Source: a virus. From it: a DNA stretch of 64,000 bases. This document shows, one piece after another, positions 2,927 to 10,331 of this stretch. A model generated the notes under the pieces. That model did no database searches. It saw only the letters and a program-made list of their open reading frames with translations, and was not told the DNA's origin. Positions within the stretch are counted from its first letter, which is position 1, and each line of letters begins with the position of its first letter. The stretch is taken from the IMG/VR virus record IMGVR_UViG_3300041407_000094, positions 1 to 64,000 of that record; one strand, written 5' to 3'. Made by a program: the position numbers and the translations under genes.

Positions 2927-4285
2927 TTAAGCTCCTGCATTAAGGAAGGGGTTAGATTGAGTTAGGTTTGCGGATAGTAGACCGGATGAGAAGTTTGGAA
3001 TGATTTGTCTTTGTGCTAAAGTTATGAAACTATCAGCTACGGCATCAACTTGGTCATCCTTCCGGGCACGGGAGCCGTCAAAAGCCTCACATTCAGAGAA
3101 GAAAGTATCATTCCACTCCCCGTGAACATATCGAACTAAGCCCGCTTCAGATGCTGATGCAAACGGCATAAATCTCAAGACTTTGGATTTATTTGTTGCC
3201 CTCATCCGGGCATAAAGACCTTCACTTAGGAATTCTTTAATCATCATTTGTCCAGCAGCTTTCCCAGCTTGGCCGGGCTCCTGCGGGATTATAATCTGAG
3301 TACCTTCAGGATCTTCTTTAGCAACTTCAATCATTCGTTGTATAACTTCGCCAAATCTGGCACGAAATCTAACAACGTCCATAATGATATATAAACCAGA
3401 CTTTGTTTTTCCTAGAAGGACTCCGGCTGTCCAGTCTGGGTTAGGAAGTGCTTCTGATGGCAATGAGCCAGCAATATCCCAAGCCCTGCAATATTGAACT
3501 ATATCAAGATCAAAAGGATTAACAGGTTCGCCCATCCAGTCTAATTTCCAAAAACCGCTGGAGTCCTCGCGGATGTCCCAATTCCCAAAAAGGTCGCGTT
3601 CTTTTTTTACACGTTTGAGACCTTGAAGGTTTGCAAGATATCCGGGGTTAGCTTTAATAAGTGGCGGATTGTCGTAGATCGTGGCTGAAATAAACTGTAG
3701 AGAAAGTGGAAGTACATCTTTACCGTAAGTCTCAAGAAGTTCTTCTCTGCTATCGCCCCAAATCATTTCATTGTTTTGACGGATAAACCAACGAACTTTA
3801 CCATCTCGTTCTGGATTAGGACGACCGGCGTTCTCTTCCCCTTTAGGGATGATCCACCAATCAATCCAACGACGTAAAAATGAGTCAGGAGAGGGGTTAC
3901 AAGTTAGAAATAAGTTAGGTTTCATCTTCGCTTTAGTACGAAGTCGAGACAATACAACTAGTGTGTGGTCCTCAGAAATCTGAGTGGCCTCATCTAGCAT
4001 TGCCCCAGAAATTTGTAACCCACGATATTTCTCTGCATCGTCATCTGTATCAAGGTGAGACATAGAAATCTCAGCGCCCGATGCAAATGTGAACTTCATT
4101 TCTTTTACGTTAACTTTTACTTTAGGGTCAAATGCCCTATATAGTTGGCGAGCCTCATCAAAGAGGCCACCAGATTTAGTCAGGGTATTTGAATTCTTTC
4201 GGATGATGAAACCGCGATATTGAGGATCATGCACCCAGCGGAGATGGCGAAGCAAGCCACAATAAGACTTACCTCCTCCCATAGC
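2927..4285 (-). CDS. terL: Terminase large subunit, exon 2
   Basis: Second half of Walker A (AMGGGKS), Walker B MLDEA, TCNP coupling motif, nuclease motifs AWDIA and DDQVDA. Confidence 0.92.
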   Translation of the reverse strand, partial: AMGGGKSYCGLLRHLRWVHDPQYRGFIIRKNSNTLTKSGGLFDEARQLYRAFDPKVKVNVKEMKFTFASGAEISMSHLDTDDDAEKYRGLQISGAMLDEATQISEDHTLVVLSRLRTKAKMKPNLFLTCNPSPDSFLRRWIDWWIIPKGEENAGRPNPERDGKVRWFIRQNNEMIWGDSREELLETYGKDVLPLSLQFISATIYDNPPLIKANPGYLANLQGLKRVKKERDLFGNWDIREDSSGFWKLDWMGEPVNPFDLDIVQYCRAWDIAGSLPSEALPNPDWTAGVLLGKTKSGLYIIMDVVRFRARFGEVIQRMIEVAKEDPEGTQIIIPQEPGQAGKAAGQMMIKEFLSEGLYARMRATNKSKVLRFMPFASASEAGLVRYVHGEWNDTFFSECEAFDGSRARKDDQVDAVADSFITLAQRQIIPNFSSGLLSANLTQSNPFLNAGA

Positions 4286-4524: not shown

Positions 4525-4614
4525 ACCACCATATACAATTATGTCACTATCAGCCGACAAAAACCAACTTTGTTTCAAACTTGCCGGTGAGAATGAATAC
4601 TCAAAATCTGTCAT
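4525..4614 (-). CDS. terL: Terminase large subunit, exon 1 (MTDFEYSFSPASLKQSWFLSADSDIIVYGG)
   Basis: 30 codons with Q-motif (KQSWFL) and first half of Walker A; ATGA overlap with the upstream HNH stop; absent from ORF track. Confidence 0.88.
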
Positions 4615-5192
4615 CTTGAAATTTCTTTCCCATGATTTTCAGAATACCCGTACTCTACTTCCCATGCTTTTCGAGCATTAGCAGCGTCTTCCAACTCTTT
4701 AAAGATACCTAGATAATGCCTAACACGCTTTCCGTCAATTATTTCTTGACCCTCAGCTTGCCATTTACCTGTTTTCTTGTGGAAAGACACACCTACAACC
4801 CCGGAAGAGTTATTTGTATATTTAGCACGGTTTCTGTGGTTTAATTTATCAATACTAAGTTGTAAATTAGATATTGCATTATTTTGAGTGTTCAAATCAA
4901 TATGGTCAATATCCTCAGAAGGCCACTCACCATTTACATATAGCCAAGCAAGTCTGTGAGCCTTATACAACTTTCCACCCAACCCAATTACAACGTAAGG
5001 GGATGGATTCCTTTTTGTTGCTGGACTCAAATAACCAGCTTCAAGTGTAGGACTTATATTACTGAAGAATCCGTTTTTACCTCTCCAATCTTTGAAGTGG
5101 TAATCTGGTCTATCCAACTTCCAAGTAAACTTTCCAGTTTCTGGATTGTAGTCTATAGCTTCTTTTAGGTAATCTTGCGTAATTTCATTCAT
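4611..5192 (-). CDS. Free-standing HNH homing endonuclease with C-terminal AP2-like domain
   Basis: AHRLAW...IDHID...NNAISNL HNH motif; SGVVGVSFHK..KWQA...HYLG DNA-binding domain. Confidence 0.9.
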   Translation of the reverse strand: MNEITQDYLKEAIDYNPETGKFTWKLDRPDYHFKDWRGKNGFFSNISPTLEAGYLSPATKRNPSPYVVIGLGGKLYKAHRLAWLYVNGEWPSEDIDHIDLNTQNNAISNLQLSIDKLNHRNRAKYTNNSSGVVGVSFHKKTGKWQAEGQEIIDGKRVRHYLGIFKELEDAANARKAWEVEYGYSENHGKEISR

Positions 5193-6957: not shown

Positions 6958-8346
6958 CTACAATCCTAAAGCAGCCGTATAAGCTGGGATAGCGTATCCA
7001 GCCAATGTTAGATAACCATTAGCCGTAGGGTGTGTATTATCCAATGTCTCAAAGCCTGTCCATGTGATGGTATCAATCCAAACAAGCTTAGGATTAGCTT
7101 TAGCATCCATCACAGCTTTCAATGTGACGTTTGCAGCATTAACCAACTCTGGAGCACCAGTGTTAGGCAGAATCCCACGACACAATACTTTGCCATATCC
7201 TTTAGCCAGCAACTTATCAATACACAATCCATAATCAGTTTGTTCTGTGCTATCAATACCACCAGAGCCGCTATTACCACCCAGTGCTAAGATTGCTACA
7301 TCATTAGCTGTCACAGTCTTCATAGCCAAGGCAGCATCAATCATTGCCTTGCCACCACCTGTAGTTTGACCACTAACACCATTCGTGCTACCAACAAACC
7401 CAAGGGCTGCTGCTACGTGCATTGTCTCAGTGTTTACTGAAGTAGCTCCGGGACCAGAACCGTAAGTGATGCTGTCACCAAATTGGTCAAGCTTTCTTCG
7501 GACACCAATGTCAAGCAGTGTGCTATTGCCGCTTACAGCAAAATGTCCACCAAGCTCTCTGAATGCACCACCATCCCACACATTGTATGTTGCTACAGAG
7601 CCATCACAAGGAATAACAATAGCCCGAGGAACACCATCAGCTTCAGGAGGGGCTGTGTAATAAGTGGGTGTACCACCATTCTTACTCACACCAACCCTAG
7701 AGGATGTAGCTACAATCTTAGTGAATGCCCCACGTATCTTCACAGAGCCTACGTTAGATCCACTGGTTACATTACTTGGTGCTTGGAGAGGCGGGGAATA
7801 TCCGGCAACGTTTGGTATGATCCCAGCAGAATACAAGCCTGTAGCTGAATCACTGCCTGCCTGAATCCAATTAGATGCTGTAACAAGGGATGGAGGTTGA
7901 CCTGTAACACTCAAGACATTTCCAGAGGATGCCACATAGGGAGCATCACCCATCTGCACAACCCACCTTACTTGAACAAAGTAGGTAGCGTGAGGAAGGC
8001 CTGTGAAGAGAGTGTATACAGATGCAGAGTTAGGGGCGCTAGTGAAGTCACCACCGTCTACGCTCACTTGCATAGACCCGGCATTATCACCATAATCTGA
8101 AGGAGATGTAAGCAACGCTTGCGTGCCTGTAATCCATCCACACCACAATGTCAAAGCACCGTAGGCATATACTCTTGCAGCATTCTTAGTTGTATTAAGA
8201 GAGCCTGCAAAGCCCGGAACGAACTGAGAGGATGTGAAGGGTGCAGTTGTGGGATCAGGAATTACAACGGAATGCTTTAGTTTAAAACTGTGAAGAGGTC
8301 TTGAAATAGAGCTGACAACTGGAGAGGTGATATCATGAGTCATCAT
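6958..8346 (-). CDS. SGNH/GDSL hydrolase-domain protein, probably a virion-associated esterase
   Basis: Block I FGDSIT, block II NGVSG, block III LGGN, block V DNTHP; beta-rich N-terminal region. Confidence 0.8.
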   Translation of the reverse strand: MMTHDITSPVVSSISRPLHSFKLKHSVVIPDPTTAPFTSSQFVPGFAGSLNTTKNAARVYAYGALTLWCGWITGTQALLTSPSDYGDNAGSMQVSVDGGDFTSAPNSASVYTLFTGLPHATYFVQVRWVVQMGDAPYVASSGNVLSVTGQPPSLVTASNWIQAGSDSATGLYSAGIIPNVAGYSPPLQAPSNVTSGSNVGSVKIRGAFTKIVATSSRVGVSKNGGTPTYYTAPPEADGVPRAIVIPCDGSVATYNVWDGGAFRELGGHFAVSGNSTLLDIGVRRKLDQFGDSITYGSGPGATSVNTETMHVAAALGFVGSTNGVSGQTTGGGKAMIDAALAMKTVTANDVAILALGGNSGSGGIDSTEQTDYGLCIDKLLAKGYGKVLCRGILPNTGAPELVNAANVTLKAVMDAKANPKLVWIDTITWTGFETLDNTHPTANGYLTLAGYAIPAYTAALGL

Positions 8347-8350
8347 AAAA

Positions 8351-8653
8351 TCAAGTCTCTAGAAATACACCAAAAGGTTTGCCAACATAAGCATAACGCT
8401 TCACACGATAAGTGCCGGGACCGGACAAGACAGTAGAGGGGTTGCCATAACTCAGTGCGACAAATACAGCATTGTCAGCACCGGGAGTGTCTTGGAGGAT
8501 TTTGAACTTAGGTGCGTTTTGTTCTTGGTAGGATAGAGGCTTATCAGCGTCTAGAAAGAACACACCAACCACCACTGAAGCACCTGCTGCAATAACGATA
8601 TCTGTTGAAGTCGCTTCTGTAATACCAGCAGCTAAAATTGTACTTTGTGCCAT
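8351..8653 (-). CDS. Small beta-rich hypothetical protein, possibly structural
   Basis: 100 aa ORF ending a few bases before the SGNH gene. Confidence 0.65.
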   Translation of the reverse strand: MAQSTILAAGITEATSTDIVIAAGASVVVGVFFLDADKPLSYQEQNAPKFKILQDTPGADNAVFVALSYGNPSTVLSGPGTYRVKRYAYVGKPFGVFLET

Positions 8654-8855
8654 ATTAATACCTTGAGATTAGCTGCTGTTTATTGAATTAACGTATTAGC
8701 GTCTACCCTGCCTGACCTAATATCTCTACCTTCGCAAGATTCGAAAGTCTTCTCCACCTAACCGTCTTTCCGGTTTGTCATTTATTTCAACTGTCCGCCA
8801 GAACAGTTTGGGCTAGGACTAGGCGTCCTGATACCAGACCGAAGCCTGATTCTTT

Positions 8856-9269
8856 TTAGTCGTCTTCTTGTTCGTCAGGATCAACGTAAACTAGCGATAG
8901 ACGCGGTTTCAATTCTTTACTGATTTCAGCAGGAGTTTGTTCTTCTGGCTCATCATCACGCTTACCTTTCAGGCGAGCATTGAACGAACCCAACTCTTCA
9001 GCAGTACAAGCCTTACTTACCGAAACAATACTGTTCACCAACCACTGAGCTGTAGACTTTTGGTCTGCTGTACGATCACCCTTGTTAGCAAGAATATCAT
9101 CAATGATTTCAAATGCCAACTCTTTCCGTTCCATCAACTGTTCAAGGAGATTAGTAATCTTGGATTTATTAATCCTAACCTTACTGTTTCCCCGGACATT
9201 CCGGTTTGACTTCTCACCATCAAAACGATGAGCTTTCTGTGCATCAGTTTGGGGCTTCTTATTAGCCAT
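8856..9269 (-). CDS. Candidate terminase small subunit
   Basis: 137 aa, basic N-terminus, helical core, acidic tail; first gene of the packaging block. Inferred from position and size. Confidence 0.45.
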   Translation of the reverse strand: MANKKPQTDAQKAHRFDGEKSNRNVRGNSKVRINKSKITNLLEQLMERKELAFEIIDDILANKGDRTADQKSTAQWLVNSIVSVSKACTAEELGSFNARLKGKRDDEPEEQTPAEISKELKPRLSLVYVDPDEQEDD

Positions 9270-9304
9270 TCTATAATTTACCTATAATCGTCTATAATTG
9301 ATTA

Positions 9305-9525
9305 CTTTCTAAATAATCCTGACAAGATCACTTGCATTATAACTAAGGAGTTACAAGATTATTTAGAAAGCTCACTGAATGCATGAGGAGTGCATACACC
9401 AATGAGCGAAGACCATCTCGCAGGAGAGAGGGACGAGCGGTCTTAAGTTGCTGAAGGAAGAGGAGAGAAAAACTTCAGCAGGAGAAGATAAGACTCATGT
9501 AGAATTTAGTTCTTATTGTCTTATC
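9305..9525 (-). ncRNA. Putative structured ncRNA: five consecutive hairpins with CUCCU (anti-SD) motifs
   Basis: Inverted repeats 9305-9370, 9370-9407, 9409-9444, 9449-9480 and ~9487-9525; several plus-strand mismatches become G-U pairs on the minus strand. Confidence 0.65.
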
Positions 9526-9647
9526 GGGTGAAACTTAGAATTAATGATGTCTTTCCATCAGTCAAGCTATCATCACTAGATGACTAGGTGGGAATCGCAC
9601 CCACATGTACCAACTCTCAGCTACCGAGCAGAATTGAACTGCATGCT

Positions 9648-9723
9648 TGGCTGGCGATCCTGAATTCGAATCAGGGACAACTTGATTAACAGTCAAGCGC
9701 TCTACCAACTGAGCTAATCGCCA
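9648..9723 (-). tRNA. tRNA-Asn (GUU)
   Basis: 76-nt cloverleaf TGGCGAT...CTTGA-CT-GTT-AA-TCAAG...TTCGAAT...ATCGCCA-G-CCA with encoded CCA. Confidence 0.95.
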
Positions 9724-9764
9724 ATAATCTGTATAGGTACTAACAAAAGTAGTAGCTATACAAC

Positions 9765-9793
9765 ATTGTAACATTATTACATTCTATTTGCAA
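9765..9793 (-). promoter_or_regulatory. Sigma70-like promoter for the tRNA/ncRNA transcript
   Basis: TTGCAA-17 bp-TACAAT with TG extension, about 40 nt upstream of the tRNA. Confidence 0.65.
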
Positions 9794-9800
9794 CCACTTT

Positions 9801-9992
9801 CTATTCAGAATATGCCTCTGGAACATAGAAAGGGTCACACTGATCTTCAAATGTATAAGTGCGTGGTTCGAATTGATCAATATTATAAACTACGTTTAAG
9901 CAGTTAGCACAAAAATCTTCTTCAAGACCGTTCTCTTGTTTCATTTTAAAGTTCCTCCACGAAAGAGGCACATTGCAGCAACGACACCTCAT
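9801..9992 (-). CDS. Small zinc-finger-like hypothetical protein
   Basis: CRCC...CANC; AAGGA RBS. Confidence 0.6.
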   Translation of the reverse strand: MRCRCCNVPLSWRNFKMKQENGLEEDFCANCLNVVYNIDQFEPRTYTFEDQCDPFYVPEAYSE

Positions 9993-10070
9993 CGGTGGAT
10001 TCCTTTATTTGGTTAATGAAGTAAGAGTATCAAATAAATATCTAAAAAGCAAGTGTTTGTGAAAATATAA

Positions 10071-10331
10071 TTAATCTTCTATTTGTAAAACACCGGAATG
10101 CACATATTTGATAATTCCATTATTCTCCTCCCAGTATCGAATATAGTCTAGAATGCCTGTCTTACGTTCCGTGTCTTTCAATGGAATCCCGCACATGCAA
10201 GAACCTTTTACAAAATATATGTAATGACTTAAGAAATCACTATAGTCAGGGACAAAGCCTTCATAGAATAATTGTTCCGCTTCCTTAAAGCCGTACCACC
10301 AAGTGTTTACAGTTTTATGCTGCTTGCTCAT
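10071..10331 (-). CDS. Hypothetical protein
   Basis: ATGA overlap with upstream polymerase-like gene. Confidence 0.6.
   Translation of the reverse strand: MSKQHKTVNTWWYGFKEAEQLFYEGFVPDYSDFLSHYIYFVKGSCMCGIPLKDTERKTGILDYIRYWEENNGIIKYVHSGVLQIED

Follow-up and report, generated by a model that had tools for sequence, protein, structure and literature searches.

A conserved family of structured phage RNAs with repeated pyrimidine loops between tRNA and packaging genes

Introduction

The cuckoo/ar14 RNAs of Alphaproteobacteria (Rfam family RF02344) consist of two to four adjacent hairpins, whose stems are variable and whose loops carry one motif, CCUCCUCCC, complementary to the Shine-Dalgarno sequence (an anti-SD motif), as described in excerpts of PMC4615179. 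Among the members with alternative names are RSs0680a-d (CcsR1-4) and SmelC397 (NfeR1); NfeR1 carries three such motifs, any of which can pair at the ribosome-binding site (RBS) of ntrB, so that the silencing of this gene is redundant, according to excerpts of PMC10746234. Here we describe an element of ~230 nt, located at 9534..9305 on the minus strand of a 64,000-nt stretch of phage DNA, for which cuckoo/ar14 is the closest known design. This stretch, the window in the following, comprises the initial 64 kb of a virus record of 81 kb in IMG/VR (IMGVR_UViG_3300041407_000094), which is ~92% complete and belongs to a phage with a G+C content of ~40%.

Other described systems share individual traits with the element. 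In Firmicutes, RNAIII and RsaE/RoxS pair with ribosome-binding sites via several UCCC-type loops, and CsrB/RsmZ and CrcZ are known protein sponges with a repeated loop motif. Phage T4 shuts off its early mRNAs with two proteins, the nuclease RegB and the repressor RegA. Firmicutes small RNAs (sRNAs) with C-rich loops are also mentioned in the excerpts of PMC4615179. Among phage RNAs, c4 of P1/P7 is cut from a longer transcript and blocks translation with loops that pair around an RBS (PMC12197685, excerpts), and PAK_P3 (Nankokuvirus) produces small RNAs from its tRNA region, directly upstream of terL, that rank among its most abundant late transcripts (PMC4933390, excerpts).

Results and discussion

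A conserved RNA family

The element belongs to a conserved, uncatalogued family of phage RNAs with a length of about 215-250 nt. We collected 26 full-length copies (25 distinct sequences) and two truncated ones from IMG/VR and JGI contigs, and the carriers are related uncultured phages of ~80-90 kb. An earlier note on the window, made from the sequence alone, had known of no described phage RNA with this design. This holds for the sources that we searched: in Rfam 15, the window returns only its tRNA-Asn and chance-level rows, with no family for the element, and neither the excerpts of a 2025 review of phage sRNAs (PMC12197685) nor the other literature searched contained such an RNA. In the window, the element is organized as follows:

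9527..9534, minus strand: 5' motif GUUUCACC, single-stranded; the most conserved sequence of the family
9487..9525, minus strand: hairpin 1, with a variable stem of 6-8 bp, a conserved A-rich loop and a small inner AGAA/UUCU helix; no CUCC
9481..9486, minus strand: linker UUCUCC, which with the next base forms the fifth CUCCU; UCUCC(C/U) recurs here in many copies
9449..9480, minus strand: hairpin 2, with a GCUG..CAGC stem and a 16-nt pyrimidine loop containing CUCUCCU
9409..9444, minus strand: hairpin 3, with an AAGAC..GUCUU stem and the 11-nt pyrimidine loop CCCUCUCUCCU
9370..9407, minus strand: hairpin 4, with a variable stem (36-61 nt in relatives) and CUCCU in the loop
9307..9368, minus strand: hairpin 5, a long Y shape with an outer stem of 15-16 bp and two small branches

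Folding and covariation across relatives, which the note had named as checks, both support this architecture. When folded singly, 25 of 25 copies display five top-level domains in the same order in their minimum free energy structures, and the z-scores of 24 distinct sequences range from -4.1 to -10.9 (median -6.7), with none of 60 dinucleotide shuffles as low in any case. Stems are swapped wholesale between copies; hairpin 1, for instance, has about ten different stems in the first 16 copies. As MAFFT misplaces these variable stems, whether applied to the whole element or to single hairpins, we used single-sequence folds and a covariance-model alignment. The resulting 25-row alignment is biased towards the structure, to which it was fitted, and against it, as the inner parts of hairpins 3 and 4 are still misplaced, which makes the pair counts conservative. 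In this alignment, both partners change in 56 of 67 pairs, compared with a shuffle mean of 43.8 and with 0 of 500 shuffles reaching this value. Standard pairs occupy 80.1% of its 1603 cells (60.6% in shuffles), and its covariation score of 0.514 drops to 0.189 in shuffles and does not exceed 0.111 if partners are shifted by 1-3 columns. The corresponding 16-row alignment is 77.0% paired, with 51 of 67 pairs changing on both sides and a score of 0.464. On the level of single helices, all six pairs of hairpin 2 change on both sides, as do 12 of 15 in the outer helix of hairpin 5, where 95.2% of the cells are paired.

The display of CUCC(U) on hairpins, as claimed in the earlier note, is supported: CUCC is present in 73 of the 75 loops of hairpins 2-4 (24/25, 25/25 and 24/25, respectively). 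These terminal loops are 7-19 nt long and nearly purine-free, with CCUCUCCU as their commonest form. An extra UCUCC(C/U) is frequent in the linker before hairpin 2, and hairpins 1 and 5 have no conserved CUCC motif. For the window itself, the minus-strand fold contains the loops UUUUUCUCUCCUCUUC, CCCUCUCUCCU, CACUCCU (CUCCUCA, if one pair fewer is formed) and CCUU that had been claimed, and the fifth CUCCU lies mostly within the linker of hairpins 1 and 2. The claim did not hold fully for the CUCCU at 9346-9350: located in a 4-nt tip on the first branch of hairpin 5, it is unpaired only in part, and it is not conserved among relatives.

The observation that had drawn attention to this locus, five plus-strand AGGAG words at 9346, 9386, 9422, 9461 and 9480, is correct in all positions. 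They account for five of the 138 AGGAG matches on both strands of the window, and every other 140-nt stretch has at most two on one strand. In 200 dinucleotide shuffles of the whole window, the largest cluster comprised five words in 2 cases, four in 13, three in 115 and two in 70. The cluster alone is thus unusual at about the 1% level, which makes conservation in relatives the stronger argument. Likewise, no tandem repeat was found in the element stretch, in agreement with the statement that the hairpins did not arise by tandem duplication.

The hairpins look as if they had been shuffled among phages: the window shares hairpin 1 with L070 and L003, and hairpin 5 with L006, L010 and L086. This suggests recombination between modules.

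Distribution

The family was collected in several ways. Eleven loci share the 137-aa open reading frame (ORF) that follows the element in the window. A look-alike element lies just upstream of this ORF in L002, L003, L004, L006, L007, L010 and L012; another gene is found there in L005, L009 and L011, and the sequence of L008 does not extend upstream. In the whole records of L009 and L011, the element is present ~3 kb further upstream. We also built two DNA patterns from conserved words and verified their matches by motif counts, nhmmer or the covariance model. The first was true in 11 of 97 stretches and added L014, L021, L034, L047, L051, L065, L070, L086 and the truncated L066. The second gave 10 model matches among 62 new loci of 71 stretches, three of them on records already in the set, and added L141, L151, L157, L162, L166, L177 and L181. 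With a stricter pattern, the element was found in 5 of 38 stretches of a metagenome collection, namely the new L219, the truncated L236, L228 (equal to L166 in model score) and two contigs that, judged by length and model score, appear to be in the set already. The same pattern matched 24 stretches in 185,579 species genomes, none of which contained the element, so that no host clue came from there. Among 17 loci fetched via their terminase, nhmmer detected it only in three already-known records, and a model search of ten whole records of relatives yielded the canonical element in two (G006, G007) and a weak 26.7-bit match in a third (G003). A blastn search with 8800-10000 against 50,697 phage records returned only the tRNA and one near-promoter piece among the matches listed (40 of 296 records).

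In distant terminase relatives, CUCC-containing leaders occupy the space between a TTGACA-type promoter and the packaging genes (L117:7390-7517, L118:7997-8124, L119:5060-5246, L120:6627-6813, L126:7193-7421), with four to six CUCC words in loops and linkers. They score 14.8-26.7 bits to the family model and are barely alignable; the leader of L118 immediately precedes a homolog of the 137-aa ORF. These may constitute a wider super-family of CUCC leaders.

Strand and transcriptional context

The note had placed a structured, non-coding RNA on the minus strand, within a tRNA transcription unit, and this is supported by the fold, by the absence of ORFs and by the context. No ORF of at least 30 aa lies between 9270 and 9561 on either strand. 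For 9270-9560, the minus-strand fold has an energy of -85.6 kcal/mol (z -6.72) and the plus-strand fold one of -79.4 kcal/mol (z -3.71), with 0 of 200 shuffles as good in either case. Of 16 copies compared, 15 reach a lower energy in sense than in antisense orientation. The related argument that mismatches on one strand become G-U pairs on the other is weak in the window, where 7 minus-strand pairs compare with 6 plus-strand pairs, and better over 16 members (90 vs 60).

Every gene and tRNA surrounding the element is carried by the minus strand, in the order 63-aa ORF, promoter-like site, tRNA-Asn, 111-nt spacer, element and 137-aa ORF, followed further downstream by an HNH gene, the large terminase, the portal and the protease. 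The immediate neighbors are:

9765..9793, minus strand: promoter TTGCAA-17-TACAAT with TG before the -10 hexamer, from a sigma-70-like consensus scan (9/12 matches); upstream of tRNA-Asn
9648..9723, minus strand: tRNA-Asn (GTT), called by ARAGORN and by Rfam tRNA (69.4 bits); 111 nt upstream of the element
9537..9647, minus strand: spacer between tRNA-Asn and element, read from its sequence as a T-arm-like piece and a small hairpin
8856..9269, minus strand: 137-aa ORF, starting 37 nt past the element, with a basic N-terminus and an acidic C-terminus

By itself, the promoter scan is weak, since it found 3 sites in the region where 3.5 are expected; in L003, the same promoter-plus-leader sequence lies ~35 nt upstream of the element. 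As near-consensus sigma-70-like sites precede genes of all classes, the time of expression cannot be read from the promoter. A tRNA on the same strand is found within 700 nt upstream in 14 of 26 copies, and in 11 of 26, the G of GUUUCACC is the base right after the tRNA 3' end. The abutting tRNA is one for Thr, Gly, Arg, Leu or Pro, and the junction is kept whichever of them precedes. The 5' end of the element is thus probably released by the 3' maturation of the preceding tRNA, and from the gene context we infer a single transcript of tRNAs, element and packaging genes.

If the plus strand were expressed, the RNA would present GGA/GGAG purine loops that could sponge CsrA/RsmA, as the earlier note had considered, or bind the anti-SD of 16S rRNA in the 30S subunit. 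The plus strand also folds better than its shuffles, and the PAK_P3 record annotates late antisense RNAs over the tRNA/terL region. Nevertheless, we regard this option as very improbable, and the sponge version as disfavored: no promoter-like site was found on the plus strand in 8600-10100 by the consensus scan, the antisense fold is the weaker one in the large majority of copies, and the tRNA fusion, the promoter and the genes are all on the minus strand. Moreover, CsrA sites are usually short GGA loops, and those of the plus strand are purine loops of 8-19 nt.

The repeated CTCC/GGAG words could also be a site on the DNA level, such as a pac site or another site where a protein binds double-stranded DNA, with hairpins that are incidental or form a cruciform. 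The element adjoins the packaging genes, upstream of the presumed small-terminase gene, and contains one word in five copies with a spacing of 19-40 bp; pac sites with repeated short words exist, for instance in phage P1. We consider this explanation very unlikely, because stems that are replaced wholesale and yet remain complementary are nothing that binding to double-stranded DNA needs. The strand asymmetry in fold energies and G-U pairs and the fusion of the 5' end to tRNA 3' ends speak against it as well, and the 137-aa ORF has no terminase family match.

A serious rival, though a fairly improbable one, is a leader or processing module that acts in cis, only on its own tRNA-packaging transcript. 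It might guide tRNA 3' maturation, protect the 5' end of the downstream mRNA or set the readthrough into the packaging genes by attenuation or antitermination. In line with this, the element always lies between promoter or tRNAs and packaging genes, no terminator-like site follows hairpin 5, and the 5' motif starts with AG followed by UUU, which resembles the cleavage preference of RNase E between these two parts. In the distant relatives, this position is taken by CUCC-rich leaders that are not homologous, in L118 directly before the homologous ORF. In 16 of 26 copies, the start of a homolog of the 137-aa ORF lies no more than 150 nt downstream, which fits a role in cis, but in 8 none is found within 900 nt (the remaining 2 have too little downstream sequence). 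Furthermore, a stabilizer or processing signal would not require the same CUCC word in three loops, and the RBS of the 137-aa ORF (AGGU type) pairs poorly with them.

Also against a role in cis, several sequences can be interposed between the element and the 137-aa ORF homolog: a tRNA-like sequence (L006, L012), a stretch resembling that after hairpin 5 of L006 (L086) or ~3 kb of other genes (G006, G007). Between hairpin 5 and the next ORF, L006 (2868-2950), L012 (2876-2955) and L128 (downstream of 1753) have a module that starts with CUCAUGUGUU and a weak tRNA-like sequence, which scores 26.4 bits with Rfam tRNA and 33.9 bits with tRNA-Sec, both below threshold.

A search for sequencing runs gave only small shares (0.05-0.20), and we compared the contigs of four. 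In X2, a marine metatranscriptome of ~1 million letters, a 158-nt contig with a depth of 28 covers 9301-9378 (hairpin 5) with two differing letters and continues downstream into sequence of the kind present after hairpin 5 in L006, L086 and L128. We do not count it as proof of transcription, as it represents a relative's copy and may be library DNA. The runs X9, X1 and X8 gave pieces of relatives and many tRNA look-alikes. Uncovered parts carry no information.

Comparison with known RNAs

Like the cuckoo/ar14 RNAs, the element is built of adjacent hairpins with freely varying stems (hairpins 2-4 in 25/25 copies) and a shared pyrimidine anti-SD-like motif in their loops, and its motifs are redundant, some of them in unpaired linkers, as in the excerpted description of cuckoo/ar14 (PMC4615179). 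It differs in the motif itself, as its loops read CCUCUCCU and 0 of 75 loops of hairpins 2-4 contain CCUCCUCCC, and in its architecture, which also includes two domains without the motif (hairpins 1 and 5) and, at the 5' end, a conserved tail. Cuckoo/ar14 RNAs are chromosomal or plasmid genes of Alphaproteobacteria, whereas the element is phage-encoded, fused to tRNAs and devoid of a terminator, with all copies on phage-like contigs and 0 of 24 pattern matches in the species genomes. Searching 21 member loci with RF02344 gave a single match, in L129 (38.8 bits, E 0.00027), below the gathering score of 58.8, and no match in the other 20 (E limits of 10 for the window and of 0.1 or 1 for the others). 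We read the element and cuckoo as the same design, reached independently.

The likeness to the remaining systems is more limited. RNAIII and RsaE/RoxS share the use of several UCCC-type loops for pairing with ribosome-binding sites; they have no kinship in sequence or structure to the element, are host-encoded and have their own terminators. The c4 RNA, which has an Rfam family, is likewise a phage RNA excised from a longer transcript with RBS-pairing loops, but it acts on one specific target in its own operon, lacks a repeated anti-SD word and gave no match to the window in the Rfam scans. The sRNA1 and sRNA2 of PAK_P3 occupy the corresponding position in a distant relative, lying between tRNAs and immediately upstream of terL. 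They are not homologous: the family model R1 found 0 matches in PAK_P3 40001-88097 at E up to 10, the folds differ, sRNA2 looks tRNA-like, and neither has pyrimidine CUCC loops. As for CsrB/RsmZ, the favored strand of the element displays CUCC and not GGA, and there is no Rfam Csr/Rsm match. The T4 proteins RegB and RegA offer an analogy only: if the anti-SD function discussed below is true, the outcome would be the same, an inactivation of GGAG-type early sites, although by RNA pairing.

Possible functions

Our leading, though still tentative, interpretation is an RNA with redundant anti-SD loops that blocks or tunes ribosome binding on GGAG(A)-type SD regions. The sigma-70-like promoter would drive the element together with the phage tRNAs, and the cut that matures the 3' end of the preceding tRNA would free its 5' end. 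The five domains would then form, with hairpins 2, 3 and 4 each presenting a purine-free CCUCUCCU loop and one more UCUCC in the linker. These redundant loops would pair with GGAG(A)-type SD regions of phage early/middle or host mRNAs, and such pairing would block or tune ribosome binding, as the three anti-SD loops of NfeR1 do.

The multivalent anti-SD repressor of the earlier note, freed from the tRNA transcript, is thus the most plausible candidate. In its favor, the loops (UCUCCU) complement AGGAGA, the RBS word used most often by the phage, and the design is that of NfeR1. Most strong ribosome-binding sites in the window phage, other than that of the 137-aa ORF, have the form AGGAGA: 35 AGGAG-type words precede ORF starts in the window, 25 of them AGGAGA, the exact complement of UCUCCU, and 2 AGGAGG. 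Of the 56 ORFs in the two plus-strand blocks, where primase/helicase, DNA polymerase, exonuclease and RNR are encoded, 34 have GGAG at -20..-4 from the longest-ORF start, compared with 7 of the 27 in the packaging and tail blocks (Fisher p 0.0046); GGAGA is present for 21 of 56 and 1 of 27, respectively (p 0.001). This comparison leaves out block C (GGAG 11/39) and three ORFs upstream of the tRNA. In the window genome, the bias fits an RNA that masks early/middle sites and spares late ones.

Several observations weigh against this interpretation. The bias is not repeated in G006, a complete family genome whose proteins are on average 56% identical to those of the window phage: GGAG precedes 8 of 20 late and 9 of 24 early/middle homologs (p 1.0), and GGAGA 0 of 20 and 3 of 24 (p 0.24). 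Gene starts were set crudely at the longest ORF, and temporal classes were guessed from gene function. Nearly every strong phage RBS would be a target, so that a specific one is lacking, and as a global sponge the RNA would be in competition with ribosomes. As no terminator-like site follows hairpin 5, it may always remain joined to the downstream mRNA. No transcript of the element was seen in the contigs of the four sequencing runs, the X2 contig not being counted. By our count, the canonical element is lacking in 7 of the ten whole records of relatives: the model has no match at all in G001, G002, G004, G005, G008, G009 and G010, three of which are at least 90% complete. Finally, the RBS consensus AAGGAGAA does not account for the 5' CC that is conserved in CCUCUCCU, which suits a protein partner as well as pairing.

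A specific target had been suggested in the RBS region of RNR. The match of 13 of 14 nt is real, but we read it as chance, because it is located in the one loop that relatives do not conserve.

Instead of pairing with mRNAs, the repeated purine-free loops might titrate or trap a protein that binds pyrimidine-rich or 16S-3'-tail-like single strands, a serious rival although we hold it to be rather unlikely. Candidates are the termination factor Rho, whose clefts bind YC, ribosomal protein S1, the KH protein Era and, among toxins, a MazF-type enzyme cutting such pentads. A short motif repeated over several loops is the layout of known protein sponges, and the motif is conserved beyond the SD complement (CCUCUCCU). 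The divergent leaders of L117/L118, L119/L120 and L126, whose hairpins are not alignable, retain only CUCC-rich loops and linkers. According to excerpts of PMC12360218, Rho subunits bind short pyrimidine stretches, and hairpin-like RNAs can bind Rho tightly; in excerpts of PMC12274833, MazF-mt3 cuts between U and CCUU and mt6 between UU and CCU, and mt11 removes the anti-SD. A Rho site is expected to be C-rich, G-poor and largely unstructured. Hairpins 2-4 are C-rich and G-poor, with C/G ratios of 1.6-3.2; however, such ratios are unexceptional in this genome, where other 120-nt windows reach 5-17, the RNA is highly structured, and rut sites are not known to require a fixed word such as CUCC. 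No candidate protein was found, and the links to Era, S1 and toxins are by resemblance only.

To a variant of this idea, we assign a small chance only: as a decoy of the single-stranded 3' tail of 16S rRNA, the RNA would absorb, with its three to five CUCC(U) loops, a host factor directed against this tail or against pyrimidine tracts. Such a factor may be, for example, a MazF-type abortive-infection nuclease that cleaves UCCUU/UUCCU-like pentads, or Rho. If true, ribosomes or phage transcription would be protected by an RNA-only counter-defense; the pseudo-ToxI RNA of phage phiTE is a comparable case.

We give hardly any credence to another proposal of the earlier note, an antagonist whose CUCCU loops would pair with the GGA loops of host RsmX/Y/Z. 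The sole point in its favor is a distant terminase kinship to Pseudomonas phages (45-46% identity). Pairing with A(N)GGA loops would be limited to UCCU (4 nt), and with a phage G+C of ~40% and none of the 24 genome-collection matches being the element, the proposal is without support.

Genomic neighborhood

The large terminase of the window phage is 45-46% identical to those of the Pseudomonas phages UAVern, ventosus and Bitten and of the PAK_P3/KPP10 group. Its ORF (2927-4282) matches the PHROG profile only from position 176, the N-terminal part being missing, and an HNH_3 and AP2 gene (4611-5192) sits just upstream. No group I intron was detected in the whole window with Rfam at the gathering score; in relatives, such introns are clear in L007 (4842-5107, 88.3 bits) and L021 (2331-2557, 71.5 bits). 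The packaging operon also contains a 462-aa ORF (6958-8346, minus strand) with a GDSL-like lipase/acylhydrolase domain in residues 289-445 (Pfam PF13472, 40.8 bits).

The 137-aa ORF has no Pfam or PHROG family match, and tblastn against known phages gave zero matches. We therefore do not retain the label terS, which has no family support; the ORF is a small terminase by position only. In the copies read, it and its homologs have a weak RBS of the AGGU/AGGA type without GGAG. In the window fold, the 5' motif of the element pairs with this RBS. We dropped this as a long-range contact, because the motif is constant, the RBS varies among copies and other genes intervene in several of them.

Neither ARAGORN nor Rfam called a tRNA in the spacer at 9537..9647. 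In position, it matches the tRNA-like sRNA2 of PAK_P3 (L260:46344-46477), which it may resemble. In the tRNA region of one relative (L021:8326-8388, minus strand), we observed a sub-threshold match to YrlA, a Y RNA-like family (39.2 bits, gathering score 69).

Conclusions

Very few regulatory RNAs of virulent phages are known. Here, a clade of uncultured phages of ~80-90 kb keeps a large structured RNA in its tRNA cluster, and strict conservation among the single-stranded parts of this RNA is confined to complements of the ribosome-binding signal. Should it trap a protein such as Rho, S1 or a toxin, it would represent a novel type of RNA decoy in phages. If, on the other hand, it masks GGAG-type sites, a phage would reprogram translation with RNA only. 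This would be the counterpart to the early shut-off that T4 achieves with proteins, and the cuckoo/NfeR1 principle would have been invented independently.

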